From sequence record ON528725: DNA of 64,000 nucleotides. One strand, written 5' to 3'. Within the stretch, counting starts at the first letter, position 1, and each line of letters starts with the position of its first letter. This stretch comes from Shigella phage ESh15. Under the pieces are notes generated by a model. That model worked only from the letters and a program-made list of their open reading frames with translations. It ran no database searches and was not told where the DNA came from. The translations under genes and the position numbers were made by a program. Positions 1 to 15,700 of this stretch are shown here, one piece after another.

Positions 1-417
1 ATTAACTGACAACATATCGGTTTTTAAGAATTCGTCAATATAAAAACGTGGTTTATTAGGGTCTGCAGTGATATTGAAATTGAATTCTACATCAAAAGCG
101 CCGCCATAACCAGTGATATCTGTGATTAGAAAATCACAATCATAATAATCAATTAATGAATCAACCACAAATTCATTTTCAGACCAGAAATATTTACGAG
201 TGTTATACGCGTTATCTTTATACCATAATGGAACAAACTTAAATTCCGGGAAAAGACGTTCACATTCTTTAATATCAGATGCATTACGTGGATATGTAAT
301 CACATCACCTGGATTAGCACGGTGCAAATGAAGTTGGAAGTTGCCATCCTTAAGGATAGCATACTGTCCAGTTTCATAAGACCGCATACTCAAGATTGGT
401 ACGCGGAAAATAGCCAT
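1..417 (-). CDS. hypothetical protein, N-terminal part only (gene runs past window start); occupies the position where T4 has beta-glucosyltransferase
   Basis: ATG at 417..415 overlaps gene 42 stop (TAATG); open frame to window edge (MAIFRVPILSMRSYETGQ...); not in ORF track because it has no stop in window; no family recognised. Confidence 0.45.
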   Translation of the reverse strand, partial: MAIFRVPILSMRSYETGQYAILKDGNFQLHLHRANPGDVITYPRNASDIKECERLFPEFKFVPLWYKDNAYNTRKYFWSENEFVVDSLIDYYDCDFLITDITGYGGAFDVEFNFNITADPNKPRFYIDEFLKTDMLSVN

Positions 418-1133
418 TAGTCAAGGAATCCTTTAACATAATCAAAATCACGTTCAAACACATGGGCACTTACCATGGTATGAGTATAATCACCAACTTC
501 TACACCGCATTCGTTAGCGATATAATGAAGTAATTTTCCTTGGAGATAAAAATCCAACTGCATAACAACAGCACAGTTCTGAGAACGCATATGACAGTGT
601 GTATAAAGCTTACCATCACGAATATAATAAGTCACTGAGTCAGTACATGGATATTCAAGCGTTTCGTCTGAATCAAGCAAAGCCTGATCAGAACTTTCTA
701 GAATTTGGAACACAACTCTTCGAGAGTTAGGCTTCTCTTTAAGTTCTTTTAGAAGAGCTGGTAATTGAGCCGCAATGCGAGGACCATAGAAAGTGTTGAA
801 GTTCGCAGGCAAAGCATCTGATTTTGGTTTAGAAATAAATTTAGCGACATTAGGATATGCCTTAAACGCTTCTTCTGCATCAGTACCACCAGAAATCATA
901 AACTTCCAGAAGTCTTCGGCATATTCATAAGAGATGCGGTTAATACGTGGGTCGGTCATTTTGAATGATGATGGAGTGTCAACAACTACTGTCATAGACC
1001 CAATTTCATTACAACGTCCAATACGAGAATCAGTTACGAATTCCGGGTTTTCTAAAATTTCACGATTGACTGCTTTAAATGCGGTTTGAAAATCTGCGGC
1101 TTTGATATATTTCATTGTGTTATGTTTTCCCAT
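417..1133 (-). CDS. 42: dCMP hydroxymethylase-like protein (thymidylate synthase superfamily)
   Basis: 238 aa; active-site-like P-C-T-x-x-V-x-Y-x-I-R and SRR motifs; position equivalent to T4 gene 42. Confidence 0.6.
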   Translation of the reverse strand: MGKHNTMKYIKAADFQTAFKAVNREILENPEFVTDSRIGRCNEIGSMTVVVDTPSSFKMTDPRINRISYEYAEDFWKFMISGGTDAEEAFKAYPNVAKFISKPKSDALPANFNTFYGPRIAAQLPALLKELKEKPNSRRVVFQILESSDQALLDSDETLEYPCTDSVTYYIRDGKLYTHCHMRSQNCAVVMQLDFYLQGKLLHYIANECGVEVGDYTHTMVSAHVFERDFDYVKGFLD

Positions 1134-1175
1134 GTTTACCTCAATACAATTTATTATATACTCAATTCGTAAAGC

Positions 1176-1415
1176 TTATTTGAATTTCTTGACAATGTTG
1201 ATATAACGTAAAGCTTCAGCATCGATACTTCCAAGAACACTATGAAGGAATGCATCAGTGTAGTATTCCAATTGAACCGGTTCTTTAATCACTTTAGCCG
1301 CTTTGGTTTCAAACAGGCCCATAAGGGCCTTTTTAAGAATTTGTTCGTTAGTGTTCAGTTTTATAGTCAAAATCTCTTCATTAAGTTTATAATTAAAAGT
1401 TTTTCTAGAAATCAT
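1176..1415 (-). CDS. hypothetical protein (79 aa)
   Basis: ORF with 4-nt overlap to upstream gene; hydrophilic, so not an Imm-like membrane protein. Confidence 0.45.
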   Translation of the reverse strand: MISRKTFNYKLNEEILTIKLNTNEQILKKALMGLFETKAAKVIKEPVQLEYYTDAFLHSVLGSIDAEALRYINIVKKFK

Positions 1416-2572
1416 TCCGGGTACCTCAAAGCGTCATCAGAGTTAGTTATATCAATAATAGATATGGAGTTTTCTGCTAACCCGTTTTTAGATAATTGAC
1501 GTTTATAATATCTTTCACAATATGTACACGTTGACCCACAGATTTCATTGGCACAATCAAAATCCGGATGTCTGAACCACCTTTTTTCTAAAAAGCCATC
1601 TAACAAAGAGGTTTCAATATTTACTGTATGTGAAAACTCAGTCTCATTTTCAAGAGTGAAAATAGTCTCTAAAGGCTTCCACAGTTCTAACAAATTACCT
1701 TCAAACTTTTCAGAAGCGTATGCTTCAAGAACTTTCAAAATGTAGTCTGTGCTACCTGTACGTCCTGAAACTTTGAATTGAGTGATACCAATATCATTAT
1801 AAAGTTTCAAATCTTGAGGACGAACAAAACGAGTTCTCAACCAGTTAAATGGGTCCGTATCACGAGCTTTAATGCAGTGTTGCATTGGATATCCATTTAA
1901 GGATTTAGCATCATCAGCTGTAACATCAGTACTATGGAAAATATAGCAAGAGTCACGATAGCTACAATGTGTTGTATACCCTTTACCAGCATTAGAACAG
2001 AACTCATTTACAAGAACTTCAAATATTATATTGTTCTTATTGCAAAACTCTGCTGCACGCTTCAGGAAAGAAACTGAACGGTTCTTATGAATTCCGCAAC
2101 AGACTTTTTTGATGTTATATTGGTCGTGCAAGTATTTGATTTGAGTTACGGCATCAACATGTAGAATTGTTGAAACTTCAATCTCAATATCTTTATTGAC
2201 TTCACGAACAATTTCCATAACAACAGGGTTAGCGATAGTAATACGCCATACGCCTATTGACCAAAGATACTGAACATAATCCTGAATAGCTTTCTTCTTC
2301 CACTCAACTAGTTCTCTTTTTGAACCAGGATTTATCGTGTTGAGTGTATAGTTAAAGCAAATACCTAATTCATTACAACGTTTAACATAGTCTTCTAACA
2401 TCTTTTTGTCAACGTCAGGAAGCCTAAAATCAGGTCTGGCTGCTACAAAAGCCATTTCTCTTGTAGAGCCGTATACTTCATTTATCAAGCTATTAGGATA
2501 AGTTTTATTGAGCTCTACGATTTTATCAAGAAGAGCTAAATCAAAATTCGTTCCGATTTTAAAAGTATTCAT
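1412..2572 (-). CDS. Cys-rich protein with C-terminal CxxxCxxC cluster, possible Fe-S enzyme; fold unassigned
   Basis: 386 aa; C-terminal C-x4-C-x3-C-x2-C (DFDCANEICGSTCTYC) plus several other Cys; weak resemblance to U32-type TIM-barrel proteins (FNYTLNTI segment). Confidence 0.6.
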   Translation of the reverse strand: MNTFKIGTNFDLALLDKIVELNKTYPNSLINEVYGSTREMAFVAARPDFRLPDVDKKMLEDYVKRCNELGICFNYTLNTINPGSKRELVEWKKKAIQDYVQYLWSIGVWRITIANPVVMEIVREVNKDIEIEVSTILHVDAVTQIKYLHDQYNIKKVCCGIHKNRSVSFLKRAAEFCNKNNIIFEVLVNEFCSNAGKGYTTHCSYRDSCYIFHSTDVTADDAKSLNGYPMQHCIKARDTDPFNWLRTRFVRPQDLKLYNDIGITQFKVSGRTGSTDYILKVLEAYASEKFEGNLLELWKPLETIFTLENETEFSHTVNIETSLLDGFLEKRWFRHPDFDCANEICGSTCTYCERYYKRQLSKNGLAENSISIIDITNSDDALRYPE

Positions 2573-2630
2573 TTTTGCATCTCGCGTTAATTGATGCGAT
2601 GGGTTTTTTTTGCAGGTCTTACTTAAATTA

Positions 2631-3032
2631 TTATAGATTCGGTTTATACGATTTAAATGTTTCGAATTCGCCTTTATTCATAAGAGCTTTGAATTCGTCA
2701 GGACGCATAGCTTTGTCGTCGATAATCCAATCATATACTGGTTTATGTGTTAGCAAATTATGGTACTTCAAACCAATGTTTTCCAAGTTCTGAATCAGAC
2801 TTGGGAGAATGTCAATTGCTATACGACCAGGACCTACTGACTTCATACCACGAGCAGTGTAAAGCGTTATGGTATGCCCTGCATCATACAGGGCATTAAT
2901 GGCAGACACCATTTCGACGTCTGGTTTGAAGTTCACGTAATCACGATTGTTATTCCATTCCGTGATGCAATCATCGACATCAAAACAAAGATTAAGCATG
3001 TTTTCTACACGGTGCATTAGATTCGTTCCCAT
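2631..3032 (-). CDS. HAD-like phosphatase (small, KdsC-like)
   Basis: 133 aa; motif I-like FDVDDCIT, TARG, C-terminal WIIDDKA acidic motif; alternative start at 3017 overlapping upstream stop (TAATG). Confidence 0.5.
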   Translation of the reverse strand: MGTNLMHRVENMLNLCFDVDDCITEWNNNRDYVNFKPDVEMVSAINALYDAGHTITLYTARGMKSVGPGRIAIDILPSLIQNLENIGLKYHNLLTHKPVYDWIIDDKAMRPDEFKALMNKGEFETFKSYKPNL

Positions 3033-4705
3033 TGATGAGTGATATCGCCACCGATTGGACGATAGGAAACACCAGTTTCTTTATCAGTTAGTACCCATTT
3101 ACCAGGATTTTTTGTAATCAGAGTAGCCGTTACAGGTTCTGCTACGTCATAACTAATAGAGCCGTCTTGAAGTACACGACCCATGTTACGTAATTGCTTA
3201 GTCAGAAGTTCCATACCTTTATAATATGCTGCTACCGCTTTAAGTGGATTATTCTTGAAATAACCACCTAATGCAATCCAGATAATTGCTACTGCCAAAT
3301 GATGATACTCGTTAAACGAACTCATCTTTCCATATTTGTAAACTAGTGGATTGATGTTAATAGTCACATTACAAGTTGTTTCATCAATAATAAACTGGCC
3401 CCAGGTCGGATTAGCGTTGAATTCATCATAACCTGAAACAGCATAAAGCACTTTAGCTTCATCATACAATTTTGGCCCGTAAATCTTGGTTTCACCAAAA
3501 TATCCACGAGGGTCGATAAACTTGACTTCGCCGTTATCAGTAATCATGGTATTACTGAAGTTCGGGTCACCGTGAATAACAGAGTACTGTCCCTGAGAAC
3601 GGTTATGATAGCGAATAAGATGTTCTAAAGCTTGTTTCAACATTGGCTTCAGATGTCCAATCTTAGTGTAGTTCACGTGTGTGATTTTACCAAATGAATC
3701 AATCAATGGCTGAATGCTTTCACAACGATCAATAACTTTCGTATAGAATTCTTTAGTGAAATCACGACGAACAGTTTCAGGACTTACAAAATAAGTGTCT
3801 GTGCTGAATTTCAGTGCATCTAAAATTACATCAACAATTTGTGGACGAGCAAGACTTGATTTGGATTTAATATATTCAAATGCTGGCTTACCTTTAATAC
3901 GTTCCATAATAAAGTGGCCGCCAGGATGATAACTTACAATCTGTGGAACTGAATCTGATTTAACTTTCTTATACCAATTGACTTCATCTTTTTGAAGTGC
4001 AACGCCCTGTTCTGTTAAAGCAATCTTTGTTACCGTTTCTTCGCCAATTTCAACTGCATTAAAACTACGATTAAGTTCACGAACTTCATGAGCTTTTTCA
4101 AGTTTAGGCATATCACCAAGGTCGATGATATTCATAAGCTCTGATTTATTGAATGCGCCGCTGTAAAGGAATTCTACGAAATCACGTCCTTTGCAGTATT
4201 CATGAATTTCCTCATCAGTAGAACCCATATAGAATTCCCAGTCTTTGAACTGATAAATTCCTACAACATTACCACCTGTTGAACCTACGTTAGTGATATT
4301 TTCACCGTCGAAATTATATCGACATTCGTCACCCTTAACATAGATTGCGTTAACATTCCAAGACCATGAACCAAAATCAGGAATAATATCGCACCAGTTA
4401 ACAACTACGTTATGGCCGTCTAAATCTTTATGTAATTTAGCAAGAGCATAAGCAGAACCATACGCTTCATCAACTGTACGAATAGTCACATTGAACCCTT
4501 CTTGCTCACAATAAGCTCGAACAGTTTCAGCAAATTTTGAATGAACTACTACAATAATTTCATCTGCACCAAGGTCAGAATAAATTGTATACAAATTGCT
4601 CAGAATAGTGTCTTGTTTATAGTTCACAAGAACTTTTGGAATATGGTGAGTAATTGGATATAAACGAGTTGCCAATCCAGCACCAAGAATAACAGCTTTT
4701 TTCAT
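3017..4705 (-). CDS. bifunctional sugar-1-phosphate nucleotidyltransferase (N-terminal) / APH-ChoK-type sugar kinase (C-terminal)
   Basis: 562 aa; N-terminal ILGAGLATRLYPIT resembles RmlA/GalU G-x-G-T-R-L-Y-P-I-T; C-terminal HGDPNFSN (H-x-D-x4-N kinase catalytic motif) and FIDPRG. Confidence 0.7.
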   Translation of the reverse strand: MKKAVILGAGLATRLYPITHHIPKVLVNYKQDTILSNLYTIYSDLGADEIIVVVHSKFAETVRAYCEQEGFNVTIRTVDEAYGSAYALAKLHKDLDGHNVVVNWCDIIPDFGSWSWNVNAIYVKGDECRYNFDGENITNVGSTGGNVVGIYQFKDWEFYMGSTDEEIHEYCKGRDFVEFLYSGAFNKSELMNIIDLGDMPKLEKAHEVRELNRSFNAVEIGEETVTKIALTEQGVALQKDEVNWYKKVKSDSVPQIVSYHPGGHFIMERIKGKPAFEYIKSKSSLARPQIVDVILDALKFSTDTYFVSPETVRRDFTKEFYTKVIDRCESIQPLIDSFGKITHVNYTKIGHLKPMLKQALEHLIRYHNRSQGQYSVIHGDPNFSNTMITDNGEVKFIDPRGYFGETKIYGPKLYDEAKVLYAVSGYDEFNANPTWGQFIIDETTCNVTININPLVYKYGKMSSFNEYHHLAVAIIWIALGGYFKNNPLKAVAAYYKGMELLTKQLRNMGRVLQDGSISYDVAEPVTATLITKNPGKWVLTDKETGVSYRPIGGDITHQWERI

Positions 4706-4746
4706 GTTGAAGTCCTCATTGGTAAGTAGATGTATTGTACACTATT

Positions 4747-4890
4747 CTAGTTAAAGCATTCATACTTTGCCTGTAGACCAATCATAATCCATCCAATTAC
4801 AAGTGTTGGAATCATTACTGGAACCGTTAAGCTCCAGTAGATAGTCATGACAAGCATCAATAGTAAAAGTCCTATTGTTATTGCTTTCAT
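4747..4890 (-). CDS. small hydrophobic membrane peptide (47 aa), below ORF-track cutoff
   Basis: ATG overlaps stop of SIS gene (ATGA); translation MKAITIGLLLLMLVMTIYWSLTVPVMIPTLVIGWIMIGLQAKYECFN; coordinates approximate. Confidence 0.35.
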   Translation of the reverse strand: MKAITIGLLLLMLVMTIYWSLTVPVMIPTLVIGWIMIGLQAKYECFN

Positions 4891-5522
4891 TGTTCGCCTC
4901 GTAACATGGCACCTAGTGCACCGCCAGGGTGGAACTTAAGGAAGTCATTAGAGGTAAATCCACGTTCAGACGAAAGGTTGATAGCGAACGTATCGATAAG
5001 CGCTAACAACAATGTAGTGGACATGGTCGGAGCTAAAGAGTTCTCGTCAACTTCTACCGCGATACCAGTACAGAACGTATAATCAAAAAGAGCTTCGTAT
5101 TCTTGTGGAATGTCAGGGTTACAATGTAACAGAATCTGTTTAACCTGAGGACGAATCATACGAAGATGTTTAGCAACACCTATCATTTCTTCAGTCTTAC
5201 CAGAACGACTAATATGAATCAACACATCATTAGGCGCAATGAATCCTGCATCACCGTGAGAATAATGCCCAGTGTTCAAGTACATACTCGGGATACCGAG
5301 TGAAGCAAATGTCTCAGAAGCTTTAGTTGCAATATTAGCATTCTTACCAACACCTGTAATAATTACTCGGCTTTCATAATTACTAAGTCCAGGGCGTCGA
5401 AGAGTTTCTAGAATAGCATTATAACGAGCAGGGTTTTGACTAATTACTTTGGCCATGGTGGCAAGAGATGAAGCTTGTTTTACGATTGCGTCAATAGCGA
5501 TAGTGATTGGTGTAGTTTTCAT
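4887..5522 (-). CDS. SIS-domain sugar-phosphate isomerase (arabinose-5-phosphate isomerase KdsD/GutQ-like)
   Basis: 211 aa; VIITGVGKNANIATKASETFASLGIPSMYLNTGHYSHGD resembles the KdsD SIS core (GxGKS...HGD); no CBS domains. Confidence 0.7.
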   Translation of the reverse strand: MKTTPITIAIDAIVKQASSLATMAKVISQNPARYNAILETLRRPGLSNYESRVIITGVGKNANIATKASETFASLGIPSMYLNTGHYSHGDAGFIAPNDVLIHISRSGKTEEMIGVAKHLRMIRPQVKQILLHCNPDIPQEYEALFDYTFCTGIAVEVDENSLAPTMSTTLLLALIDTFAINLSSERGFTSNDFLKFHPGGALGAMLRGEQ

Positions 5523-5562
5523 ATTTCTCTCATTTAATTAGTTGGCCGTCCTTGGCATTATA

Positions 5563-8274
5563 TCAAAAATCGAACATATCGAACAGAGATGCTTTCTTCT
5601 CGTAATCGAGTTTCGCTGCTGATGTGAATCCTTCAAGTGGTTTAATAAATGTCTTCTCAAGGAGAACAGTGTAGTCCATCCAATGAAGTACGTCGTCTTT
5701 AATTAAATCTGTGATTTCAGTACCAGAAGGCCATGCGATACATTTATCACCGAATGGGTTTCCATCACGTAAAGGCAGAACGTATACCTTTTCGCCTTCT
5801 ACAACTTGTGGAGCATCAATATTACCTTTGATAGCTCGGTTATATGTCAGAATTCCACGAATATGGAACGGACATTTAGGACCAGGGAATCCACCAACAT
5901 CATATTTAGCAATGTTATTCGCAGAAGATACCGACGCGATGCTAATATAATTCAATTGACGGAATTCTTTTTCAAACTCTTTAAAATATTCTTGTAATGA
6001 TTCTTCACCTTCTTGAAGCATACGACGAATACATTCTTTAAGAGCTTTCTGTACTGCTTTAGGGGTCGAAGATTTCTGAGTCTCTAGACCCATGATTTTG
6101 AGTTTAGGCTCAGCGTAACGAGTACCTTCCATATCCCACACGTTTAATGCGTAACGTTTCTTACCAGTCCAGAATCCACCAATACCTTTAGAACCGAGCG
6201 GAGGACCAGCGATAGCTTCTCGGTCCATGAACATTAAGTGTTGTTTATTGTTCATGTATTCACACATTTCACGGAAACCTCTATCAATAGCAGGTTCCAT
6301 ACGTTCACGAGCGAACTTATCTAAGAAGTCTACCCAATGGTTGGTATCACGGAATTTAGATTCACCAACCTTATCAATAATTTTATCTGCAGATACATAA
6401 ATGGAGTCTGTATCACCATATAGAACGAAAGCTTCACCTTCTGTACCACAAACTTCGTTCAGATATTCATTAACTTTACGTTCAATCCACTGTAAAGCCA
6501 TTTGACCAAATGTTGTGATTGCAGTAGCATTACGCAAATCGTAATAACGGAACCAAACGTTTCCAAGTGCACCATAAAGCGAGTTGATGAGCAATTTACG
6601 GTTAATCTGTGCAGTCATACCTGCAACTTCAGTACGTTGAGCTCTAAACAACATTTCATTAAGAGATTTAGCAGACAACTTTTTAATCTTTTCTTTAATC
6701 TCGTCAGTGAAGTCGAAACGATAATCAACATCTAATGGTTCGTCAACAGAAAGATTAGGATTATGCAACGCCTCTTTAATTATTTCACCATTACGTTGAG
6801 CTGCAAGCATGTAACCTTTATGTTCTTTACGTTGATTAAAGACCTTAGTGATTTCAGTTGGAACTACACCGTCACGGTCTTTATAATACATCATGCCGTT
6901 AGGAGAGCAACTGTACACATCTGAAGGACGTTCAGCGATTGCGTTAATATAATCATGCAATGGAGCTACTTTAAACGTTCCTGCTATTGTTTCTGGGCTA
7001 ATATTCACTTGGCGAATAATACTTGGATACAGAGATGTAAGGTCGAAACTCATTACGTATTTGTATCGATTTGGAATAGGTTCCTTAACAAAAGCGCCAG
7101 GATAAGGTTGAACCGGGTGAGAACGACCTTGTGGAATCACCTTGTTCTGCTCTTTAAGGCTATTAAAAATAATAGCATCCCATGTTTTAATTGGGCTAAA
7201 CACAGATTGAATCTGTATCTTAGCATAATAACCCATGTCCAAACTCAAGTTGATGAACTGACGCTTAGCATCAATTTGCAATACACGATACACGTCGATA
7301 ATGTTATAAGAAATATATCGTTGGTGATTGCTTTCACGAAGCTTAGAAATAGGGCCGTCATATTTCAGTTTACCAACGTTCAATTCAAATTCTGAAATGT
7401 AATCCAGAGAATACGACGGTTGATTGGTAAAAGAGAATTTTTTGTAAAGGTCAATGTAATCAAGAACAGAGATACCGAACAATGTAATGATTTCACGAGA
7501 ACCATACATGTTTTCGATAACTTTAACACGAGTTTTACGATGTGGTGATAAACGTTTCGCAGTAGATTCGCCAAAAATATTCTTGATTCGGTTATACACA
7601 TATGGAATATCAAATGACTCAACGTTCCATCCAGTCAAAATGACAGGAGTTTTCTGTTGCCAGAAGTTGAGATATTCCATCAACAATTCTTTTTCGTTAT
7701 CGAACGGCATATAAACGATTTTGTCGATAATTTCGGATGGAACTTCATCACCACCTTGTTCTTGAAGCTTAGCAGCGATTTCAATAGACCATTCTTCTAC
7801 ATTACCATATGGAGAATTCAATAGATCAAATACGTAGAACCTGTCGTCAATTGAGTCATAATGGGTGATAGCATCAATCGGATGTTTTGCTTGTGACGGC
7901 TCAGGGAACCCATCCGGAGATGTTACTTCGATGTCGAAGTTAGCCACACGAATTTTTGTATGGTCGTATTTGATTTCATAGTTATAAGTGTCAGACAAAT
8001 ACGCCAATTTGAAATCGTCCATGCCAAGTGCTTCAAGTCCGATATCTTCCATGCGTTTAATCCATTGGGAGGCATCACGCATATTAGCGAACAACTTACG
8101 AGTACACGGCTTACCGTAGATATCGAAATATTTCGTAGCCTGACTTTCTGGACAATGAGCAAACAGTGATGGTTTATATTCTACTTCACGAGTACGTTCA
8201 CGGCCATTAGAATCGATGTAACGTTCAAAAATTGAATCACCAATCTGTTCAACCGTTAAGTAAAATTCTTTCAT
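5563..8274 (-). CDS. 43: DNA polymerase (family B), RB69-type
   Basis: 903 aa; exonuclease FDIE motif, polymerase YGDTDS motif; N-terminus MKEFYLTVEQIGDSIFERYIDSNGRERTREVEYKPSLFAHCPE as I recall for RB69 gp43. Confidence 0.97.
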   Translation of the reverse strand: MKEFYLTVEQIGDSIFERYIDSNGRERTREVEYKPSLFAHCPESQATKYFDIYGKPCTRKLFANMRDASQWIKRMEDIGLEALGMDDFKLAYLSDTYNYEIKYDHTKIRVANFDIEVTSPDGFPEPSQAKHPIDAITHYDSIDDRFYVFDLLNSPYGNVEEWSIEIAAKLQEQGGDEVPSEIIDKIVYMPFDNEKELLMEYLNFWQQKTPVILTGWNVESFDIPYVYNRIKNIFGESTAKRLSPHRKTRVKVIENMYGSREIITLFGISVLDYIDLYKKFSFTNQPSYSLDYISEFELNVGKLKYDGPISKLRESNHQRYISYNIIDVYRVLQIDAKRQFINLSLDMGYYAKIQIQSVFSPIKTWDAIIFNSLKEQNKVIPQGRSHPVQPYPGAFVKEPIPNRYKYVMSFDLTSLYPSIIRQVNISPETIAGTFKVAPLHDYINAIAERPSDVYSCSPNGMMYYKDRDGVVPTEITKVFNQRKEHKGYMLAAQRNGEIIKEALHNPNLSVDEPLDVDYRFDFTDEIKEKIKKLSAKSLNEMLFRAQRTEVAGMTAQINRKLLINSLYGALGNVWFRYYDLRNATAITTFGQMALQWIERKVNEYLNEVCGTEGEAFVLYGDTDSIYVSADKIIDKVGESKFRDTNHWVDFLDKFARERMEPAIDRGFREMCEYMNNKQHLMFMDREAIAGPPLGSKGIGGFWTGKKRYALNVWDMEGTRYAEPKLKIMGLETQKSSTPKAVQKALKECIRRMLQEGEESLQEYFKEFEKEFRQLNYISIASVSSANNIAKYDVGGFPGPKCPFHIRGILTYNRAIKGNIDAPQVVEGEKVYVLPLRDGNPFGDKCIAWPSGTEITDLIKDDVLHWMDYTVLLEKTFIKPLEGFTSAAKLDYEKKASLFDMFDF

Positions 8275-8334
8275 TTAATTTCCTTTAGACGAGTTATTGT
8301 CTTTTGTTTGTTGATGAACTTATTATACTCCAAA

Positions 8335-8350
8335 TGGGACCGAAGTCCCA
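8335..8350 (-). terminator. UUCG-tetraloop hairpin between regA and gene 43 (terminator or RNA stability element)
   Basis: minus-strand UGGGAC-UUCG-GUCCCA then UUUGG, followed by TATAAT-like element about 40 nt before the gene 43 RBS. Confidence 0.4.
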
Positions 8351-8355
8351 TTGCT

Positions 8356-8724
8356 TTAATTACCAATTGTATATTTTGCTTTCAAAGTCCAGTCATCTTT
8401 CTGTTTAAAAGAGATAACACGGAAGTTATTAGTCAGGCCAAACAGATCTTCACGAGCAGAGTCTTCAATAACAATTAATCCCCAGTCTTCAAGCAACTGA
8501 GCAATCGAATCACGTCGCTGATAGTCTTCACCATCAATATCAACCTGACGTCCGTCCATACGCAGCATTTCTTTAAAGTGGACGATGTAATATTTACCTT
8601 GCTTTTGGAGGATATGACAGGACTGATAAAGGATTTTATCCTTGTTATTAGCGATGCCCATACGGGTTAGAGTCTCTTTGACTTTCAGAAAATCTTCAGG
8701 GTTCTTCAATTTAATTTCAATCAT
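8356..8724 (-). CDS. regA: translational repressor RegA
   Basis: 122 aa from MIEIKLKNPEDFLKVKETLTRMGIANNKDK, near-identical in pattern to T4 RegA; ORF-track start at 8733 is probably over-extended. Confidence 0.9.
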   Translation of the reverse strand: MIEIKLKNPEDFLKVKETLTRMGIANNKDKILYQSCHILQKQGKYYIVHFKEMLRMDGRQVDIDGEDYQRRDSIAQLLEDWGLIVIEDSAREDLFGLTNNFRVISFKQKDDWTLKAKYTIGN

Positions 8725-8726
8725 TT

Positions 8727-9290
8727 TTACCATTCCAATGCTAATTTTTTAAATTGTTTTTGTTCTTTCACATTTTTTGTAACTTCTTTGAGAAACTCAT
8801 CAGTGACCATGGCCTTCAGTTCTTTAAGGACTATTGGCAACTTGTTATTTTTTTCAAGGAGCCGCTTATACTCGGTAGCATCATTCATGTTGATTGTGTA
8901 ATGTTTCATCAACAGTTTGATAACTAGTAACTCTGAAGTGTCTTCGACTAGTTTAGCCCATTTAGAGAATCGACGACCACGCGGAATTGCCGCCATCATA
9001 TAGTTGAAGTGCGCTTCATCACTTAATTCAGAACCGACTAAGTTCATCATGTAAACGGCTGGCATACATTCTGGGAACTGGGATAATGAGTTCTCAACCA
9101 TAAATTTTGAGTAGTCGACCTGAGCAATTGACATAGATTTCTTTTCATTAATAGCATTAATGATTTTAAAGAATTCATTCTCAGGTTTTTCTTTAAACAT
9201 ATCAGCACATTTTTGAATCGCATCAGCGTCATTAGACTTCCATGCAATTTGGTGCTCGTTAAGCTGGACGTCATCATCGAATAAGTTCAT
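8727..9290 (-). CDS. 62: clamp loader small subunit
   Basis: 187 aa, same length and N-terminal pattern as T4 gp62; synteny regA-62-44-45. Confidence 0.9.
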
Positions 9291-9291
9291 A

Positions 9292-10254
9292 TTATTTCCA
9301 AGTCAGTTCACAGGTCAGTTGAAGAAGCATATACATAACATGTAATTCAATATTACTTGCTAGTCCATGAAACTTATTATTTTCGCCTGCAATTTCGTAA
9401 AGCGAAATAATACTTTTACCAGGTGCAACTTGGTCATAACATTCTGAAACTAATTTATCGATGAACCACGAATAATCTGCAGCATATTTTGGAGCTAATG
9501 CACGAAGCTGTTTGATATCTTTGTTCTTCATTGCTTCGATAACATCAGAGACTGTGCCACGGTCATTAGTTACGATAGACAGAATACCTGCATCAAGAAC
9601 ACCTTTAGACGAGTACTGGTCTAATTGGCCGATTGTGCGACGAAAGTCTGGGAAGTTCTTTTTAACCAGAGCTGCAACAACTTTCATATCAGCGATTTCG
9701 ATATTTTCGTTCTTACAGATTTCAACCATACGATGAATCATTTTCTTCATCATCGAGATTTTATCTTCTTCAGTCGGACGACCGAATTCGATAACTCGAC
9801 AACGGCTACGTAATGGTTCAATAATTCCGTCAATATTGTTAGCAGTGATAATAATAGAGCAATTACTAGAGAATTCTTCCATAAACGTACGAAGGTGACG
9901 TTGTGATTCAGCGAGGCCACTACGGTCAAATTCATCAATAACAATAACTTTAGGCTTGCCTTCCATTGAGACTGAACGAGCGAATGCAGTTAACGGACCG
10001 CGTACAAAATCAATTTTACAATCAGAACCGTTGACGAACATCATTTCAGCATTGATATCGTTACATAATGCTTTTGCTACGGTTGTTTTACCTGTACCAG
10101 GAGAAGGAGAGTGCAAAATAATATGAGGAAGTTTTCCTTTAGATACTAAAGACTTGAATGTTTCATGGTCATATGCAGGCAGAATACATTCGTCAATGGA
10201 AGAAGGACGATATTTCTGTTCTAGAATGTGTTCTTTGGAATTGATAGTAATCAT
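9292..10254 (-). CDS. 44: clamp loader large subunit (AAA+ ATPase)
   Basis: 320 aa; Walker [11 protein letters not shown], Walker [12 protein letters not shown] motif; GAGGA RBS. Confidence 0.95.
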
Positions 10255-10329
10255 GTAATTTTCCTCATTATCATTAATCTGGAGGATTTCTCCTCCATAA
10301 TCGTACTACATTAAACGTAAAGCTTTGAC

Positions 10330-11016
10330 TTAGAAGTCGTGAGTAGAATCGGCTTCCATTGCAATAACATAACTTACTTGAGAGCTTTCAAACTTAGCTG
10401 CAACTTTATCACCAGCTCCCCACAACATTACTTTATAGTTACCTGGCTGGATTTTCATATTAGCCATATTGATTACGAAGTTAAAGTTATTAGAACCATC
10501 ATAATCGGTAAGAGTCAAAGAATACTTAGGACGAGTTAGTCCAGAGTCTTCAACTTTATTATAACCATTGATAACAATTTTACCATCTTTATTTGTAATA
10601 GCAATTGTATCAATCTGGAGACCACGTGAAACTCGAAGCAATTGTTGAAGGTCTTCAGCTTTAATTTCAGTAATAACGGAAGCTACTGGGAACTGAATTG
10701 GCTTATTAGGGAACACTATAGTGCTCTTGTCAGCAGCAGGCCAATAAACTGTGGAACGTGTATCTGCAATTTTAATATTGCCATCGGTGTGCATTGAAAT
10801 TTCAGCATCATCAGACACTAGACTCAAAATGCTTAAGAAGCTATTCAAATCATAAAGTGCTACATCAAAATCAATTTCATCAGAGATATTTGCTTCCGCA
10901 TAAGTGGTGCCATTAACCGCACGGGTCATAATAAATTTACCTTGACTCAACAGAATGCCGGAGTTAATAGAGGCAAAGTTTTTCAGAATAGCGATAGTAT
11001 CTTTAGACAGTTTCAT
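10330..11016 (-). CDS. 45: sliding clamp
   Basis: 228 aa from MKLSKDTIAILKNFASINSGI, matches T4 gp45 length and N-terminus; ORF-track start at 11031 over-extended. Confidence 0.95.
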   Translation of the reverse strand: MKLSKDTIAILKNFASINSGILLSQGKFIMTRAVNGTTYAEANISDEIDFDVALYDLNSFLSILSLVSDDAEISMHTDGNIKIADTRSTVYWPAADKSTIVFPNKPIQFPVASVITEIKAEDLQQLLRVSRGLQIDTIAITNKDGKIVINGYNKVEDSGLTRPKYSLTLTDYDGSNNFNFVINMANMKIQPGNYKVMLWGAGDKVAAKFESSQVSYVIAMEADSTHDF

Positions 11017-11056
11017 TTTATTTCCTTTCAAGACAATTCAAAGTTTAAAAAATTTA

Positions 11057-11473
11057 TTATGCAGCAACCATCTGCTTTTTAATAGCTTCAGGCAGTGATT
11101 CAATATATTCTGGAATTTTAGAAGCAACAATTTCACCAGCTGCAATTAGTTGTTCGTCGGCATCAACACAATAGAAATCTTCCAGGCGCTCAGAACCATC
11201 TTTATCAAGAACGATTTTTCCACCAGCTTCAATAGAATCTTTATAGTGCTTACGCATCAGATGAATCCACATATCAGATACATCGTTATCAATAAAACCA
11301 TAAATCATAAAACGAGTTTCTTGTGGCAAAGATTGAAGCTTTTTAGCACTTGCGTCATCACAATGCAGGACCCATGCTTTACGAACACGATTATGGTTAT
11401 GCGGGTTAGCGTCAGTACGGATAGAAGTAACTTTCAGATCAGCAGCAGTGAAACCTTTAGCAGTAGTAAACAT
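11057..11473 (-). CDS. rpbA: RNA polymerase binding protein RpbA-like
   Basis: 138 aa ORF in the T4 rpbA position between 45 and 46; call by synteny only. Confidence 0.5.
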   Translation of the reverse strand: MFTTAKGFTAADLKVTSIRTDANPHNHNRVRKAWVLHCDDASAKKLQSLPQETRFMIYGFIDNDVSDMWIHLMRKHYKDSIEAGGKIVLDKDGSERLEDFYCVDADEQLIAAGEIVASKIPEYIESLPEAIKKQMVAA

Positions 11474-11485
11474 ATTATTTCTCTC

Positions 11486-11686
11486 TTATTCGTAGAAGTC
11501 AGTAACTGTCCATGCGGAATTGCGATTAGACATTATTTTATTATACTCATCTTTAAAAGCAGATTTGAGCATTTGTTCAGTAACAATATGTTCTTCACCT
11601 GAAAACGTATTGGTCAAAACATATTTTTTAATTTCAGGGACAACGAGAAGATGTTGACCGGTTGAATACTCCATGTTGTTCTCCAT
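11486..11686 (-). CDS. hypothetical protein (45.2 position)
   Basis: 66 aa ORF, synteny. Confidence 0.45.
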   Translation of the reverse strand: MENNMEYSTGQHLLVVPEIKKYVLTNTFSGEEHIVTEQMLKSAFKDEYNKIMSNRNSAWTVTDFYE

Positions 11687-11728
11687 TTAATTTGATGTGG
11701 TCATTATAACCACATCGTGTTAAAGCGT

Positions 11729-13417
11729 TTATGAAACAGTCATCACAGTAAATCGTCCAACTTTGCTCATCCGAAGATGTTGTCCATAAGCTTGTGGGTC
11801 ATGGTCTCTGTGACTAATTATAAACACGTTTGCATCGGTTAGAGAGTTAAGAATTGTTGAAATAGCTTTAATACCTTCAGAATCAGTCGCGGAATCCATG
11901 ACTTCGTCCATAATTAATGTATTGATTCTAACACCAGAAACCTTTTCAGCAATATCTCGCCATGTAAACAACAATGCGATATCGATACGTGCCTTTTCAC
12001 CTTGACTAAATGAAGCATAACTAAAATCTTCACGGCCACGGGATTTTATAGATTCATTGAATTCTTCGTCAATAGAAAACACGTAATCAGCTTCCATGAT
12101 TTTAAGATAATGGTTAATCTGCTTGTTGAACAGAGGCACATATTTTTTAATGATAGCACCTTTAATACCAGAATCTTTTAACATATCTGTGATAATACCA
12201 CGATGGTATTTTTCAAGAACGATATCTGATTTTGTTTTAATGATTTTATCAAGTTCTTTTTGAAGCAAAGCTATCTCATCGGCATGGTCGATAAATTCCG
12301 CCGAGGCTTGCTCTATTGCAGCTTTAACTTTCTTAGCTTTATCAATAGTGGCAATCATTGCTTGTTTCTTGGTACGGATATCGGATGCAAGGTCCTGTTT
12401 AGTCTTAACATTAGCTCGATATTCGTCCACTAGGACACTCAGATTATCTCTGTGGCAGGTAAGTTGCTCGAATGAGTGATTACATTCATGAAGCTTATCG
12501 GTAATCTTAGAGACAATAGGGTCACCCTGGTGCAACTGTGATGCACAAGTAGGACATGTGCCACCGTCATGATACATCTTAATAACTTTGTTATATGAGT
12601 CAATTTTAGATTTAATCAAGAATGCTTCTTGTCCTATCTTGTTGAATGCCTCAGTAGGGTCTTCGTCAAGAACAATATTAAGTAGACGCTCGTTAGCTTC
12701 TTCGATTTCTGCTTTTAATGAACGAGCTTCTTTGGCTAGGTCGTCATACATATTCTGTAGACGCGCTACATTATCACCAGATAATTTCTTTTGACGTTCG
12801 ATATTCTCGTTATAAATCTTAATTTGTTGGATAATACCATCTTTCTTGGCATCGAGAACTTGTCCCTGGGAATTAAGTTCGCGAACTTGAGACTTATTGA
12901 TTTTATCCATTTCAGCAAGTGTGCCGACTTCTAAAAGGTCTTCGACAAGTTTTCTACGAGCAGGGGTGCTAAGAGCCATGAAAGGGGTATACCCTGCCGT
13001 CCCAAGCACAACGATTTGTTTAAAAGACGCATATGACATTCCGATGCTACGTTCAAATTCTTCTTGGAAGTCGCGACTGCTGGCAGATTCATCAAGACGA
13101 ACACCGTCAACGGAGATTTCGAAAATATTGGGCTTTTGGCCACGTTTAATGAAGTATTTTTTATCATCGAATTCCATCCAAAGCTCAACTAAGAGCTCTT
13201 TCTTGTTCGTGCTATTAATGATTTGTCCTTTCTTAACATCACGAAATGGTTTACCGAAAAGTCCGAAAGTAATGGCTTCTAACATCGTAGATTTACCACC
13301 ACCATTTTTACCAGTGATTAATGTCTTTTGGACTTTATCTAATTGGATATCGATAGGATTCCCACCTACCGACATGATGTTTTGATAACGAACACGATTT
13401 AATTTAAATGATTTCAT
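11729..13417 (-). CDS. 46: recombination nuclease subunit (Rad50/SbcC-like ATPase)
   Basis: 562 aa; Walker A GKNGGGKST, coiled-coil middle with CPTC zinc hook-like motif, C-terminal signature/Walker B region. Confidence 0.95.
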   Translation of the reverse strand: MKSFKLNRVRYQNIMSVGGNPIDIQLDKVQKTLITGKNGGGKSTMLEAITFGLFGKPFRDVKKGQIINSTNKKELLVELWMEFDDKKYFIKRGQKPNIFEISVDGVRLDESASSRDFQEEFERSIGMSYASFKQIVVLGTAGYTPFMALSTPARRKLVEDLLEVGTLAEMDKINKSQVRELNSQGQVLDAKKDGIIQQIKIYNENIERQKKLSGDNVARLQNMYDDLAKEARSLKAEIEEANERLLNIVLDEDPTEAFNKIGQEAFLIKSKIDSYNKVIKMYHDGGTCPTCASQLHQGDPIVSKITDKLHECNHSFEQLTCHRDNLSVLVDEYRANVKTKQDLASDIRTKKQAMIATIDKAKKVKAAIEQASAEFIDHADEIALLQKELDKIIKTKSDIVLEKYHRGIITDMLKDSGIKGAIIKKYVPLFNKQINHYLKIMEADYVFSIDEEFNESIKSRGREDFSYASFSQGEKARIDIALLFTWRDIAEKVSGVRINTLIMDEVMDSATDSEGIKAISTILNSLTDANVFIISHRDHDPQAYGQHLRMSKVGRFTVMTVS

Positions 13418-13662
13418 ATGTATTCTCTTCGAATGAAGTCCTCTACATATTTTAACATGTCATCTCTATCAGCAAAATATTCATCTAGTTCTGCATACAT
13501 AACAACACCTGGTGCATACTCACAGGTAACATACATTGTTCCAAAGAAACGAGGAGTTGTCTCCTCGTAATTCTCAGTCCATTCAACGATACCAATATAA
13601 CCGTCACCAATACTAAATTCGTGACGATGGATTTCATAGTCAGTCTTCGTCATTATACGCAT
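13414..13662 (-). CDS. hypothetical protein (46.1 position)
   Basis: 82 aa ORF, 4-nt overlap with gene 46. Confidence 0.45.
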   Translation of the reverse strand: MRIMTKTDYEIHRHEFSIGDGYIGIVEWTENYEETTPRFFGTMYVTCEYAPGVVMYAELDEYFADRDDMLKYVEDFIRREYI

Positions 13663-13897
13663 CCTCGATACATGCTTCAGCCATTTTAAGAATAGAGCCA
13701 GGAGTATCGTTGTCCATTATATTAAAGCTAAATTCAATAGCCCAGTCGGTACAGACATGAACGGCTTTAACTTCATTGCCTTCAACGCGTAATGGCTCAA
13801 TCCAATACTTGATAGTGTTCTCGAATCCATCATCATCTTTAACGTCTATTTCAACTTCAAGTCCGAGCCCAGCATTGTTAAATTCATCTAAAGTCAT
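13640..13897 (-). CDS. hypothetical acidic protein (46.2 position)
   Basis: 85 aa ORF overlapping neighbours. Confidence 0.45.
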   Translation of the reverse strand: MTLDEFNNAGLGLEVEIDVKDDDGFENTIKYWIEPLRVEGNEVKAVHVCTDWAIEFSFNIMDNDTPGSILKMAEACIEDAYNDED

Positions 13898-14913
13898 TGT
13901 GTTGCCTCAATATAAAGTTCGTTAGAATATTTGACCAGCGCTTCTCTGTCTTCGTCTGAGATATCTGGAATCGCGTCAATATATTCTTTAATGATATCTT
14001 GAAGTGATTTAATCTCGATTTCCTGGTCGTCATCAGATTCAACACTGTTATCAACTTTAGAAACCATACGAAGAGAGTGAACTACTTTTTCAAGTTCAGA
14101 TTCAAACTTAGTCAACTCTGAATCAATTTCTGATACTATAACACGTACGGCTAGATTAGTATAATCAGAATAATTGATTTTGCCTTTAAATGGATAAGTG
14201 ATTCGTCGATGCCACGTTGTTTCATTAGGAATAAATTCCATACGTTCAACATCAGTGTCAAATACCCAGAATCCGCGAGGATCATTCTCGTCACCTGCAG
14301 TAAGGGTCCATGGTGTCCCAATATATTTGACGTTAGCAGCTTCAGAGATTGTGTGGAAGTGGCCGGACCAGACTTGTTTATAGGTCTTTAAGAAATCAGG
14401 TTCAAGCCCATGAGACTTCATTCCTTTATAGAAATAAAAGCCATTCAGTTCCCAGTGACCAACACAATACGCAGCAGAAGAAGTCTTGATGTGCTCTAAG
14501 ATTTCACCTGTATTTTCTTCACACATCCATGGAACGATATCAATCAGACATCCGTCAAAATCTACAGTAGTTGGATGTTCGTAAATAGTAAAGTTTTCAA
14601 ATTGAGTTAACAATTCAGAAACAGTGTTAGGTGTTATTGTATTCTTAAACGCCATGTCATGGTTTCCTATCGTGACATGAACGTGAATGCCTGCTTTAGA
14701 AATCATATCAACGATTTCACGATTGAATTCCATTGTACGATGTGTGATTGCTTTACGGACGTCGAACCAATCACCGTACTGAATCCAAGTTTTAATCCCG
14801 TGTTTCTTAGAGTATTCAATTGCTTGACGAATACCATCACGTTGAATATCTTGAACCCATGGGTCATCTTGTTTGACTCCGATATGGAAGTCGCCTAAGT
14901 GCAAAATTTTCAT
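13894..14913 (-). CDS. 47: recombination nuclease subunit (Mre11/SbcD-like phosphoesterase)
   Basis: 339 aa; MKILHLGDFH, GNHD and HWELNG phosphoesterase motifs; matches T4 gp47 length. Confidence 0.95.
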   Translation of the reverse strand: MKILHLGDFHIGVKQDDPWVQDIQRDGIRQAIEYSKKHGIKTWIQYGDWFDVRKAITHRTMEFNREIVDMISKAGIHVHVTIGNHDMAFKNTITPNTVSELLTQFENFTIYEHPTTVDFDGCLIDIVPWMCEENTGEILEHIKTSSAAYCVGHWELNGFYFYKGMKSHGLEPDFLKTYKQVWSGHFHTISEAANVKYIGTPWTLTAGDENDPRGFWVFDTDVERMEFIPNETTWHRRITYPFKGKINYSDYTNLAVRVIVSEIDSELTKFESELEKVVHSLRMVSKVDNSVESDDDQEIEIKSLQDIIKEYIDAIPDISDEDREALVKYSNELYIEATQ

Positions 14914-14959
14914 ATTATTTCCTCATTAGTTAATTCATTCTATCATCCGTTTATAAAGC

Positions 14960-14983
14960 AAAAAAGGAACTCCGAAGAGTTCC
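14960..14983 (-). terminator. rho-independent terminator
   Basis: minus-strand GGAACUC-UUCG-GAGUUCC followed by UUUUUU. Confidence 0.6.
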
Positions 14984-15156
14984 TATCCACATAGTACACC
15001 GTACAGAGGCTCATTTGAACTTTTAAATCGAATGGGCTTGTACGTAATAGTTCCTTCGGCTTTAGCTTTATCATAAGACTCTTTAAAACATCTCATTCTT
15101 TCTGCTTTGCCTTTACGGATTTTATCGAAATTTTCAGAAGTCGGGATGTTCGTCAT
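14983..15156 (-). CDS. small hypothetical protein (57 aa), below ORF-track cutoff
   Basis: ATG with GAGAGGTG RBS; MTNIPTSENFDKIRKGKAERMRCF...; ends at the terminator. Confidence 0.4.
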   Translation of the reverse strand: MTNIPTSENFDKIRKGKAERMRCFKESYDKAKAEGTITYKPIRFKSSNEPLYGVLCG

Positions 15157-15195
15157 GCATAAGCACCTCTCAGAAAATGCCTAAATCGATTTCTC

Positions 15196-15417
15196 TCATC
15201 GTTTCCACCATTTCTTAACTTGAAATGAATCAACCCACACGAGTTGTTTTGGGTCTGCCTTTACAATAGGCGGACAAATTTCTGTAATAGAACCGTCGTG
15301 ATATTCCTTTTCGGAAATTTTAACACAAAGAGGACCACCCAATTTAATGGTGAACCCTGCGTTCAGCTTCAGACGTTTAAACTTTGTTTGAACTAGCGCC
15401 ATTAATGATGTCCTCAA
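15196..15417 (-). CDS. hypothetical protein
   Basis: 73 aa ORF; note that no alpha-glucosyltransferase-sized gene lies between 47 and 55. Confidence 0.4.
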   Translation of the reverse strand: MRTSLMALVQTKFKRLKLNAGFTIKLGGPLCVKISEKEYHDGSITEICPPIVKADPKQLVWVDSFQVKKWWKR

Positions 15418-15700
15418 TAGCCTGACGAGTAGTAATCCACTGGATTTTAATTAACTTGTCATTATATGGTTGTCGTAGAATATCCCGAGATTTCTTAATA
15501 GCATATTCGTAAGCTTCGAAGTTGTTTTGAATTGCTGCTTCTTGAGCATGAGCATAAAGTCGATTTAGTTCAAAACGATTCTTTTTAAGAATCTTTTCGG
15601 ATTTTTTACGTGCTTCAGCTTCATTTTTCTTTTGTATTTCTTGTAGCATTTTAGCTACTGCATCTTCTGCTTCTTTATTTTCAATAATCTCGGTAGTCAT
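15377..15700 (-). CDS. hypothetical coiled-coil protein
   Basis: 107 aa ORF. Confidence 0.45.
   Translation of the reverse strand: MTTEIIENKEAEDAVAKMLQEIQKKNEAEARKKSEKILKKNRFELNRLYAHAQEAAIQNNFEAYEYAIKKSRDILRQPYNDKLIKIQWITTRQAIEDIINGASSNKV

Follow-up and report, generated by a model that had tools for sequence, protein, structure and literature searches.

Arabinose was reported in the DNA of phage RB69 in 2018, when ORF055c and a corrected ORF53_52c were proposed as UDP-arabinose genes and arabinosyl-5-hydroxymethylcytosine was the base described (Thomas et al. 2018, PMC6024577). RB69 DNA is now described as containing 5-hydroxycytosine with one or more arabinoses, ether-linked at C5-O (PMC13326640), and arabinosylated 5-hydroxycytosine is reported in the virion DNA of RB69, HY126, and Bas46/47. 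According to the summary in PMC13326640, HY126 AfhE acts both as an arabinose-5-phosphate kinase and as a UDP-arabinose pyrophosphorylase (citing He et al. 2026 and Mahler et al. 2025), and AfhF is a Mg-dependent phosphatase acting on the 1,5-bisphosphate to give arabinose-1-phosphate (citing He et al. 2026). The order set out in the text of that paper runs from arabinose-5-phosphate through arabinose-1,5-bisphosphate and arabinose-1-phosphate to UDP-arabinofuranose (UDP-Araf). Herein, we compared with these systems the gene cassette at 1176-5522 of a 64,000-nt stretch of Shigella phage ESh15 (ON528725; the window), which had been proposed from its letters to be a sugar-activation pathway for DNA glycosylation (the original prediction). 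Because its proteins share 96-100% identity with their RB69 and HY126 counterparts, and on the strength of the literature and of synteny, we assign the interval, with high confidence, to the Mosigvirus UDP-D-arabinofuranose donor pathway of arabinosyl-5-hydroxycytosine DNA hypermodification. Judged by these identities, the cassette is already known, the pathway having been proposed in 2018 and characterised in 2025-26 in RB69 and HY126, and as such it adds nothing beyond the RB69, HY126, and BASEL literature. The interest lies in one of its genes, which encodes a U32-family protein and has no role assigned in the literature searched.

The arabinose donor cassette

The first 6 kb of the window was 97-98% identical in DNA to Mosigvirus genomes, and 152 phage records covered at least 80% of it; by sequence, the window is that of a Mosigvirus. 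The DNA polymerase gene (5563..8274) and a thymidylate synthase (ThyA) homologue (417..1133), flanks already placed there by the original prediction, enclose six co-directional minus-strand open reading frames (ORFs). The four genes that it had singled out were all recovered on the minus strand in an ORF check, namely a SIS-domain protein (4887..5522), a bifunctional nucleotidyltransferase/kinase (3017..4705), a HAD-type phosphatase (2631..3032), and a Cys-rich protein (1412..2572) that we identify below as a U32-family member. Identities to the HY126 and RB69 counterparts were, respectively, 207/211 and 205/211 for the SIS protein, 553/562 and 540/561 (ORF053+052) for the bifunctional enzyme, 127/128 and 126/128 for the HAD protein, 384/386 and 383/386 for the U32 protein, and 235/238 and 238/238 for the ThyA-like protein. 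In Bas47, of the BASEL collection, the annotations read ‘putative enzyme involved in UDP-arabinose biosynthesis’, ‘putative phosphatase’, and ‘putative phosphosugar isomerase’.

Gene order and domain architectures match those of the arabinosyl-5-hydroxycytosine system of RB69, HY126 (Afh), Bas46/47, Serratia phage LC53, and Acinetobacter phage DLP3. All five sequence hallmarks of the Afh/RB69-type pathway were present: the SIS protein, AfhE, AfhF, a ThyA-fold enzyme with D169N, and a glycosyltransferase. Compared with HY126, the ORF049c homologue is intact in ESh15 and nothing else of substance differs, whereas compared with the RB69 GenBank record, the AfhE and glycosyltransferase genes are unbroken here and split there through sequencing errors. 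A search for the same cassette in other T4-like phages, which had been suggested as a check, found the cluster syntenic in nine sampled lineages outside Mosigvirus. AfhE homologues were found in 373 phage records, including 57 from Acinetobacter.

Profile searches upheld the calls made for the three sugar-activation proteins, and the matches of all three agree with the assigned enzyme roles. The 211-aa single-domain SIS protein, a predicted arabinose-5-phosphate isomerase, matched Pfam SIS (4e-10), the NCBIfam models KpsF/GutQ (5e-32) and KdsD (2e-30), and phrog_5670 (1.5e-116). Its core had been read as GxGKS...HGD; the HGD part was correct, but the GKS part was not, the actual sequence being GVGKN...HGD. 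In the Protein Data Bank (PDB), it matched 3etn (7e-25), 5uqi (2e-22), and E. coli KdsD 2xhz (1e-18), and the alignments paired up the HGD and HPGGALG motifs. For the 562-aa protein, the AfhE homologue, the RmlA-like N-terminal domain was supported by an NTP_transferase match (9e-10, residues 3-99) and, in NCBIfam, by GlmU-, AglF-, RmlA-, and MurU-type models, with no HldE model among them. The motifs had been read broadly right with minor errors, and the nucleotidyltransferase loop is GAGLATRLYPIT. The APH/ChoK-type kinase domain at the C terminus was likewise supported, by weak APH, ChoK, and fructosamine-kinase matches at residues 309-410 and by HGDPNFSN followed by IDPRG; the protein matched PDB 1jyk at 2e-5.

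The HAD protein, the AfhF homologue, fell in the EcbF/BcbF capsule phosphatase family (TIGR01689, 2e-13) with FDVDD as motif I, and matched PDB 1xpj (1.5e-10) and 9iqw (99% identical). Its gene has two candidate starts. The upstream ATG gives 133 aa and a 16-nt overlap with the gene of the 562-aa protein, and the ATG at 3017 gives 128 aa. The latter is probably the true start, since the RB69 and HY126 annotations use it and the 9iqw construct aligns from that Met.

These names leave room for another function. The SIS, HAD, and nucleotidyltransferase/kinase proteins might be auxiliary enzymes for host surface sugars (Kdo, capsule, or heptose), unrelated to DNA, as the database names ‘capsule biosynthesis protein’ and ‘capsule biosynthesis phosphatase’ for the HAD protein would have it. 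PHROGs and RefSeq likewise give the name ‘phosphoheptose isomerase’, and the SIS protein is of KpsF/KdsD type in NCBIfam. However, in all the lineages sampled the genes lie between that of the replicative polymerase and those of the base-modifying enzyme, the glycosyltransferase, and a Tmk-like kinase. Their near-identical HY126 counterparts, according to the summary cited above, make UDP-arabinose for DNA, and NDP-arabinose is no known enterobacterial metabolite (PMC13326640). We regard a surface-sugar role as improbable in the extreme and rejected it on context and on near-identity to the characterised phage enzymes.

The ADP-L-glycero-D-manno-heptose pathway (GmhA, HldE, GmhB) has the same reaction logic, from a SIS isomerase through an anomeric kinase that yields a bisphosphate and a HAD phosphatase that takes off the distal phosphate, to a nucleotidyltransferase, and kinase and transferase are fused in one protein in both pathways. 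HldE joins a PfkB kinase to a cytidylyltransferase. Here, in contrast, the substrate is a pentose, the SIS protein is of KdsD/KpsF rather than GmhA type, the kinase is an APH/ChoK-like C-terminal domain, and the transferase is an RmlA/GlmU-like N-terminal domain. Neither a GmhA-type SIS protein nor an HldE-type kinase/adenylyltransferase was found in the cassette, and the reaction logic alone is common to the two. Structural matches of the HAD protein to GmhB have been reported (PMC13326640).

The neighbouring ThyA homologue (417..1133) had been taken for the enzyme that forms 5-hydroxymethylcytosine (hmC), and this identification was wrong. RB69 gp48, to which the ESh15 protein is identical over its whole length, makes 5-hydroxy-dCMP with oxygen from 18O2 and with flavin bound (Lee et al. 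2026, PMC13326640). The ESh15 protein was also 98.7% identical to PDB 9iqc/9ir2/9iqu and, in an alignment to thymidylate synthase, carried D169N (RSQN) and N177D (QLDF), the first of which is defined as the signature of 5-hydroxy-dCMP synthases (PMC13326640). Because of the identity to gp48 and the two substitutions, the sugar would be attached to 5-hydroxycytosine and not to hmC. The gp48 identity and D169N also set the protein apart from T4-type gp42, which transfers a hydroxymethyl group from methylene-tetrahydrofolate to dCMP.

The original prediction had also remarked that no canonical alpha-gt is present, but the apparent lack of a glycosyltransferase proved to be an artefact of the window edge. 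A minus-strand gene at 1..417 encodes residues 1-139 of a putative arabinosyltransferase and runs off the start of the window; these 139 codons specify a segment 136/139 identical to a 299-aa HY126 protein and 135/139 to RB69 ORF047c, matching phrog_3891 at 2e-75. The RB69 homologue is gp46:47, and Table 1 of PMC13326640 gives this type of protein the role of first DNA arabinosyltransferase.

Taken together, the pathway would proceed as follows. The SIS protein would isomerise host ribulose-5-phosphate to D-arabinose-5-phosphate. The C-terminal kinase domain of the 562-aa protein would phosphorylate C1 to give arabinose-1,5-bisphosphate, from which the small HAD protein (2631..3017) would strip the 5-phosphate, and the N-terminal RmlA-like domain would couple the resulting arabinofuranose-1-phosphate with UTP to UDP-Araf. 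Meanwhile, the ThyA-fold enzyme would hydroxylate C5 of dCMP with O2 and flavin, kinases would convert the product to 5-hydroxy-dCTP, and the polymerase would incorporate it. The glycosyltransferase starting at 417, with a second one elsewhere in the genome, would finally move arabinose onto the 5-hydroxyl in DNA. All the steps from the kinase to the hydroxylase are shown by others in HY126, RB69, and DLP3, as far as PMC13326640 and the work cited there report them, and we would extend them to ESh15 through protein identity. The outline from ribulose-5-phosphate through arabinose-5-phosphate to an NDP-pentose that glycosylates a modified cytosine in RB69-type phages had been foreseen correctly, but its free-pentose intermediate gives way to the published bisphosphate order.

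T4 has its hmC glucosylation genes in the same neighbourhood (gene 43 - gene 42 - uvsX) and follows the same strategy, in which a ThyA-fold enzyme modifies dCMP, the product is incorporated, and the base is then glycosylated in DNA. Unlike in T4, with its gp42 and alpha- and beta-glucosyltransferases, the base here would be 5-hydroxycytosine rather than 5-hydroxymethylcytosine, and flavin and O2 take the place of folate. The phage must also make the sugar donor itself, because the host has no NDP-arabinose.

The free-pentose route survives in part of the literature. Under it, the HAD protein would dephosphorylate arabinose-5-phosphate to free arabinose, the kinase would convert this to arabinose-1-phosphate, and the product would arabinosylate hmC made by a gp42-type enzyme. 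The base reported for RB69 in 2018 was of this kind (PMC6024577), and Table 1 of PMC13326640 has ‘dephosphorylates Araf5p to Ara’ for gp51 and, for the C-terminal domain, ‘phosphorylates Ara to Araf1p’. However, where the text of the same paper summarises He et al., the order runs through the 1,5-bisphosphate, and AfhE is an arabinose-5-phosphate kinase. On the side of the base, the identity of the ThyA homologue to a 5-hydroxy-dCMP synthase, its D169N, and the ether link of arabinose to C5-O all argue against hmC, and the RB69 nucleoside has already been reported without the methylene bridge. We therefore consider this alternative very unlikely.

Several points nevertheless weigh against the assignment of the interval to the bisphosphate pathway to UDP-Araf. 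The order of kinase and phosphatase comes from a secondary summary in PMC13326640, whose Table 1 keeps the older free-arabinose order. The arabinose-5-phosphate isomerase step is deduced from homology, here and in the literature, and UDP as the nucleotide carrier comes from the literature and not from the window. For ESh15 itself, the evidence is sequence, and the biochemistry comes from other phages.

The U32-family protein and its candidate chemistry

The Cys-rich 386-aa protein (1412..2572), the homologue of RB69 gp50, had been supposed to complete the set of sugar-activation genes. It does not resemble a sugar-pathway enzyme and belongs to the U32 family (PF01136 Peptidase_U32, 7e-11; 42.2 bits against a cut-off of 22.4), whose characterised members are hydroxylases, implicated in reactions that need prephenate and no O2. 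RlhA is needed for 5-hydroxycytidine (ho5C2501) in 23S rRNA and requires the chorismate mutase activity of PheA or TyrA, Fe-S biogenesis, and four Cys (PMC5727448). TrhP, which is needed for 5-hydroxyuridine (ho5U34) in tRNA, shares this task redundantly with the O2-dependent TrhO (PMC6599085), and UbiU/UbiV hydroxylate ubiquinone precursors with oxygen from prephenate (PMC10990095).

The AF2 model of the ESh15 protein had a pLDDT of 92.7, and its top fold match in the PDB by Foldseek was the U32 protein 5d88; Foldseek against the PDB returned just this entry and generic TIM barrels, and a PDB sequence search with the protein gave zero matches. The U32-motif cysteines C192 (in EVLVNEFC192) and C209 (in RDSC209Y) line up with those of UbiU, RlhA, and TrhP, C233 lies near UbiU C232, and the third canonical U32 cysteine has no aligned counterpart. 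Nine cysteines were invariant in 121 U32 homologues (C158, C192, C203, C209, C233, C340, C345, C349, and C352), and C177 was present in 98%. The last four form a C-terminal CX4CX3CX2C group (C340-x4-C345-x3-C349-x2-C352). From this pattern, the protein probably binds Fe-S clusters. A hidden Markov model of the phage U32 branch scored at most 15.5 bits against E. coli UbiU, UbiV, RlhA, and TrhP, too weak to name the closest paralogue.

On genomic context and family chemistry, we propose, with belief and doubt evenly balanced, that the U32 protein hydroxylates C5 of a deoxypyrimidine nucleotide, in all likelihood dCMP, in a prephenate-dependent and O2-independent reaction, as an anaerobic counterpart of the ThyA-fold synthase. 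It would offer a second route to a 5-hydroxypyrimidine nucleotide during anoxic infection, backing up the O2-dependent enzyme. With RlhA, TrhP, UbiU, and UbiV it shares the Peptidase_U32 domain, with conserved U32-motif cysteines that may bind a [4Fe-4S] cluster and a further C-terminal Cys cluster, and, judged by gene neighbourhoods, a possible link to prephenate supply, and RlhA and TrhP are implicated in pyrimidine C5 hydroxylation, exactly the chemistry needed here. Unlike the E. coli paralogues, the phage branch is very divergent, short (360-390 aa), and without DUF3656, and its gene adjoins deoxynucleotide and sugar-activation genes, the presumed substrate being a deoxynucleotide rather than RNA or a quinone. 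The TrhO/TrhP pair for ho5U34 is a precedent for an O2-dependent enzyme and a prephenate-dependent U32 enzyme that serve one product in a facultative anaerobe (PMC6599085). In the phage, however, the O2-dependent partner is a flavin-dependent ThyA fold and not a rhodanese, and the redundancy is hypothetical.

Somewhat less probable, though a serious contender, is that the 386-aa protein does something else: it may serve the arabinose branch as a reductase or sugar-modifying enzyme, be a peptidase of the collagenase type, or act on host rRNA or tRNA in the manner of RlhA/TrhP. The sole label found for RB69 gp50 is ‘sugar or heterocycle reductase’ in Table 1 of PMC13326640, a paper whose text mentions chorismate, prephenate, and peptidase nowhere. 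GenBank records name the U32 protein a peptidase or collagenase, but the U32 family has no known protease catalytic mechanism (PMC5727448). An RNA target would be in keeping with the characterised U32 pyrimidine hydroxylases, which act on RNA (PMC5727448, PMC6599085). In the literature searched in full text, nothing relevant linked U32, arabinosyl, and phage, or chorismate mutase, U32, and phage; He et al. 2026 and Mahler et al. 2025 lay outside its scope.

Three points count against a nucleotide hydroxylase, or at least against a strict requirement for one. In E. coli in air, gp48 with a dNMP kinase is enough for 5-hydroxydeoxycytidine (PMC13326640), the Dhakavirus JS98, a phage of E. coli, has no U32 gene, and the absence of ThyA from the non-T4-like loci described below applies to 7-10 kb on each side. 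The first two also speak for the non-hydroxylase alternatives.

The hydroxylase reading matters because the only demonstrated route to 5-hydroxy-dCMP needs O2, yet these phages infect gut Enterobacterales. RB69 has been mapped with an anaerobic ribonucleotide reductase gene; the NrdD glycyl-radical motif, sought as a sign of an anaerobic lifestyle, was absent from the 64-kb window. If the U32 protein is the proposed hydroxylase, it would account for the synthesis of hypermodified DNA without O2 and would extend the chemistry of prephenate as oxygen donor from RNA and quinones to DNA precursors. It would also supply the U32 field with a small, soluble, phage-encoded enzyme that has a simple nucleotide substrate, for an in vitro reconstitution yet to be achieved.

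Gene neighbourhoods of the phage U32 family

The U32 gene was found in 221 phage records, in which every named host was one of the Enterobacterales or Shewanella. Between ESh15 and Proteus or Shewanella phages, the U32 protein is 82% identical, compared with 42-54% for AfhE. Acinetobacter phages lack the gene, and in the Acinetobacter phage AM101 the HAD gene is directly followed by the ThyA gene without it.

A chorismate mutase (CM) gene accompanies the U32 gene in many T4-like lineages. A CM_2 gene lies directly downstream of it in Winklervirus LC53, Kanagawavirus Entb_45 and PEi20, Marfavirus F48, and Shewanella phage Thanatos-2, and one gene further away in Tegunavirus phiR1-RT and Bragavirus Pm5461; all seven phage CMs scored above the Pfam cut-off. 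Every one of the 51 phage records with this CM was a U32-carrying phage of this kind, and in each CM record with annotated neighbours the gene adjoined the ThyA homologue or the U32 gene. Among the T4-like loci from IMG/VR, 13/15 had a CM, adjoining the U32 gene or one gene further downstream. In Thanatos-2 (L006 11428-12818), U32 and CM stand together after a Tmk-like gene and not between the HAD and ThyA genes. This altered placement shows the two genes moving as a pair. Neither an RNA-modifying nor a proteolytic function of the U32 protein explains the CM linkage. In ESh15, tblastn found no CM anywhere in the 64-kb window, and Mosigviruses have the unrelated ORF049c in the slot instead; the phage would have to draw prephenate through host PheA or TyrA.

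At E ≤1e-30, the U32 protein family comprised 477 clusters. We examined 31 loci from phages that are not T4-like, several of which carry Pol III alpha replication genes and whose U32 homologues are 44-58% identical. Among the 31, a GT1 homologue (scored by clustering) was found in 22, typically overlapping the U32 start, an AfhE-like gene in 16, a SIS gene in 10, and a CM and/or 3-deoxy-D-arabino-heptulosonate 7-phosphate (DAHP) synthase gene in 12; HAD and Tmk-like genes were also present. Within flanks of 7-10 kb on each side, none of the 31 had a ThyA homologue, whereas all 15 T4-like controls had one. Compact operons had, for example, the gene order HAD, Tmk, GT1, SIS, AfhE, U32 (L052 5766-11104), U32, CM, GT1, AfhE, HAD (L050 and L059 9962-14590), or SIS, AfhE-like, U32, DAHP synthase (L015 5910-9891), and further compact U32 operons were seen in L051 and L056 (about 5237-11090), L038 and L060 (8434-11086), and L036 (7779-10130).

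From their gene content, these operons of uncultivated phages resemble a pathway for DNA glycosylation with a U32 hydroxylase at its core. In many such phages, the U32 protein would be the sole base hydroxylase feeding glycosylation, and the 477 clusters in uncultivated phages would then mark a route of DNA modification new to the literature searched. Operons that unite U32 with GT1, AfhE, SIS, HAD, Tmk-like, and CM/DAHP synthase genes, with no ThyA nearby, are again left unexplained by an RNA-modifying or proteolytic enzyme. In four loci, a single ORF adjoining U32 matched both the DAHP synthase and the CM probes (L046 8399-9430, L047 3-968, L048 7290-8354, and L057 11076-12194), which suggests a fused DAHP synthase-CM as in Bacillus AroA(G).

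Two other arrangements of U32 genes were noted. In L011 (7447-9086) and L014 (7504-9083), a dCMP deaminase gene immediately precedes the U32 gene, and in L011 the two overlap. These contigs, one of 466 kb, carry Pol III alpha genes, with thymidylate-kinase-like and UDG genes nearby; the U32 substrate here may be dUMP rather than dCMP. L012 and L013 (ENA and Logan contigs; L012 ~7185-15428) have two U32 paralogues with a radical-SAM/SPASM protein and methyltransferases, together with a deoxynucleoside kinase, an NT5C nucleotidase, a nucleoside 2-deoxyribosyltransferase, and an NMN transporter, and a dockerin-bearing glycoside hydrolase lies beside them. An anaerobe may here have another kind of modification pathway, one that works at the level of nucleosides.

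Small ORFs and gene junctions

The remaining two ORFs of the interval encode small proteins. The 47-aa hydrophobic protein (4747..4890, minus strand; RB69 ORF054c family; phrog_3610, 6e-27) is kept at the same place in HY126, RB69, and LC53, whose annotations give it a transmembrane segment. The 79-aa protein (1176..1415, minus strand; RB69 ORF049c family) matched phrog_8601 and gave zero matches in Pfam and NCBIfam searches. It is 86-97% conserved within Mosigvirus, compared with at least 99% for the adjoining U32 protein in most Mosigvirus records, and its HY126 homologue is truncated to 40 aa. Since it is much less conserved than its neighbour and truncated in HY126, it is probably dispensable. 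We also considered it as the CM of that slot and rejected this, as it has no CM_2 match and its homologue phiR1-RT g049 (45% identity) occurs alongside a distinct CM gene in that phage.

Upstream of the cassette lies the gene of the 903-aa DNA polymerase gp43 (5563..8274, minus strand), annotated so in Bas47, RB69, and HY126. The cassette genes are packed head to tail, with stop/start overlaps at three junctions, namely ATGA at the SIS/47-aa and U32/79-aa junctions and TAATG at the 562-aa/HAD junction. The base composition of the region is unremarkable. A scan of 300..5700 for sigma-70 promoters and terminators showed no enrichment over shuffles, and because of this we make no claim of an operon from it. 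The gap between the HAD and U32 genes contains, at 2582..2599, a hairpin with a 7-bp stem that, on the plus strand and thus antisense to the genes, is followed by a T-run. On the coding strand an A-run precedes the hairpin, which is therefore no terminator for the sense strand. The gap upstream of the ThyA-like gene (1134..1175) reads AAGCTTTACGAATTGAGTATATAAT on the coding strand. It contains GCTTTA 11 nt upstream of TATAAT, which, judged by eye, resembles a T4 middle (MotA-dependent) promoter.

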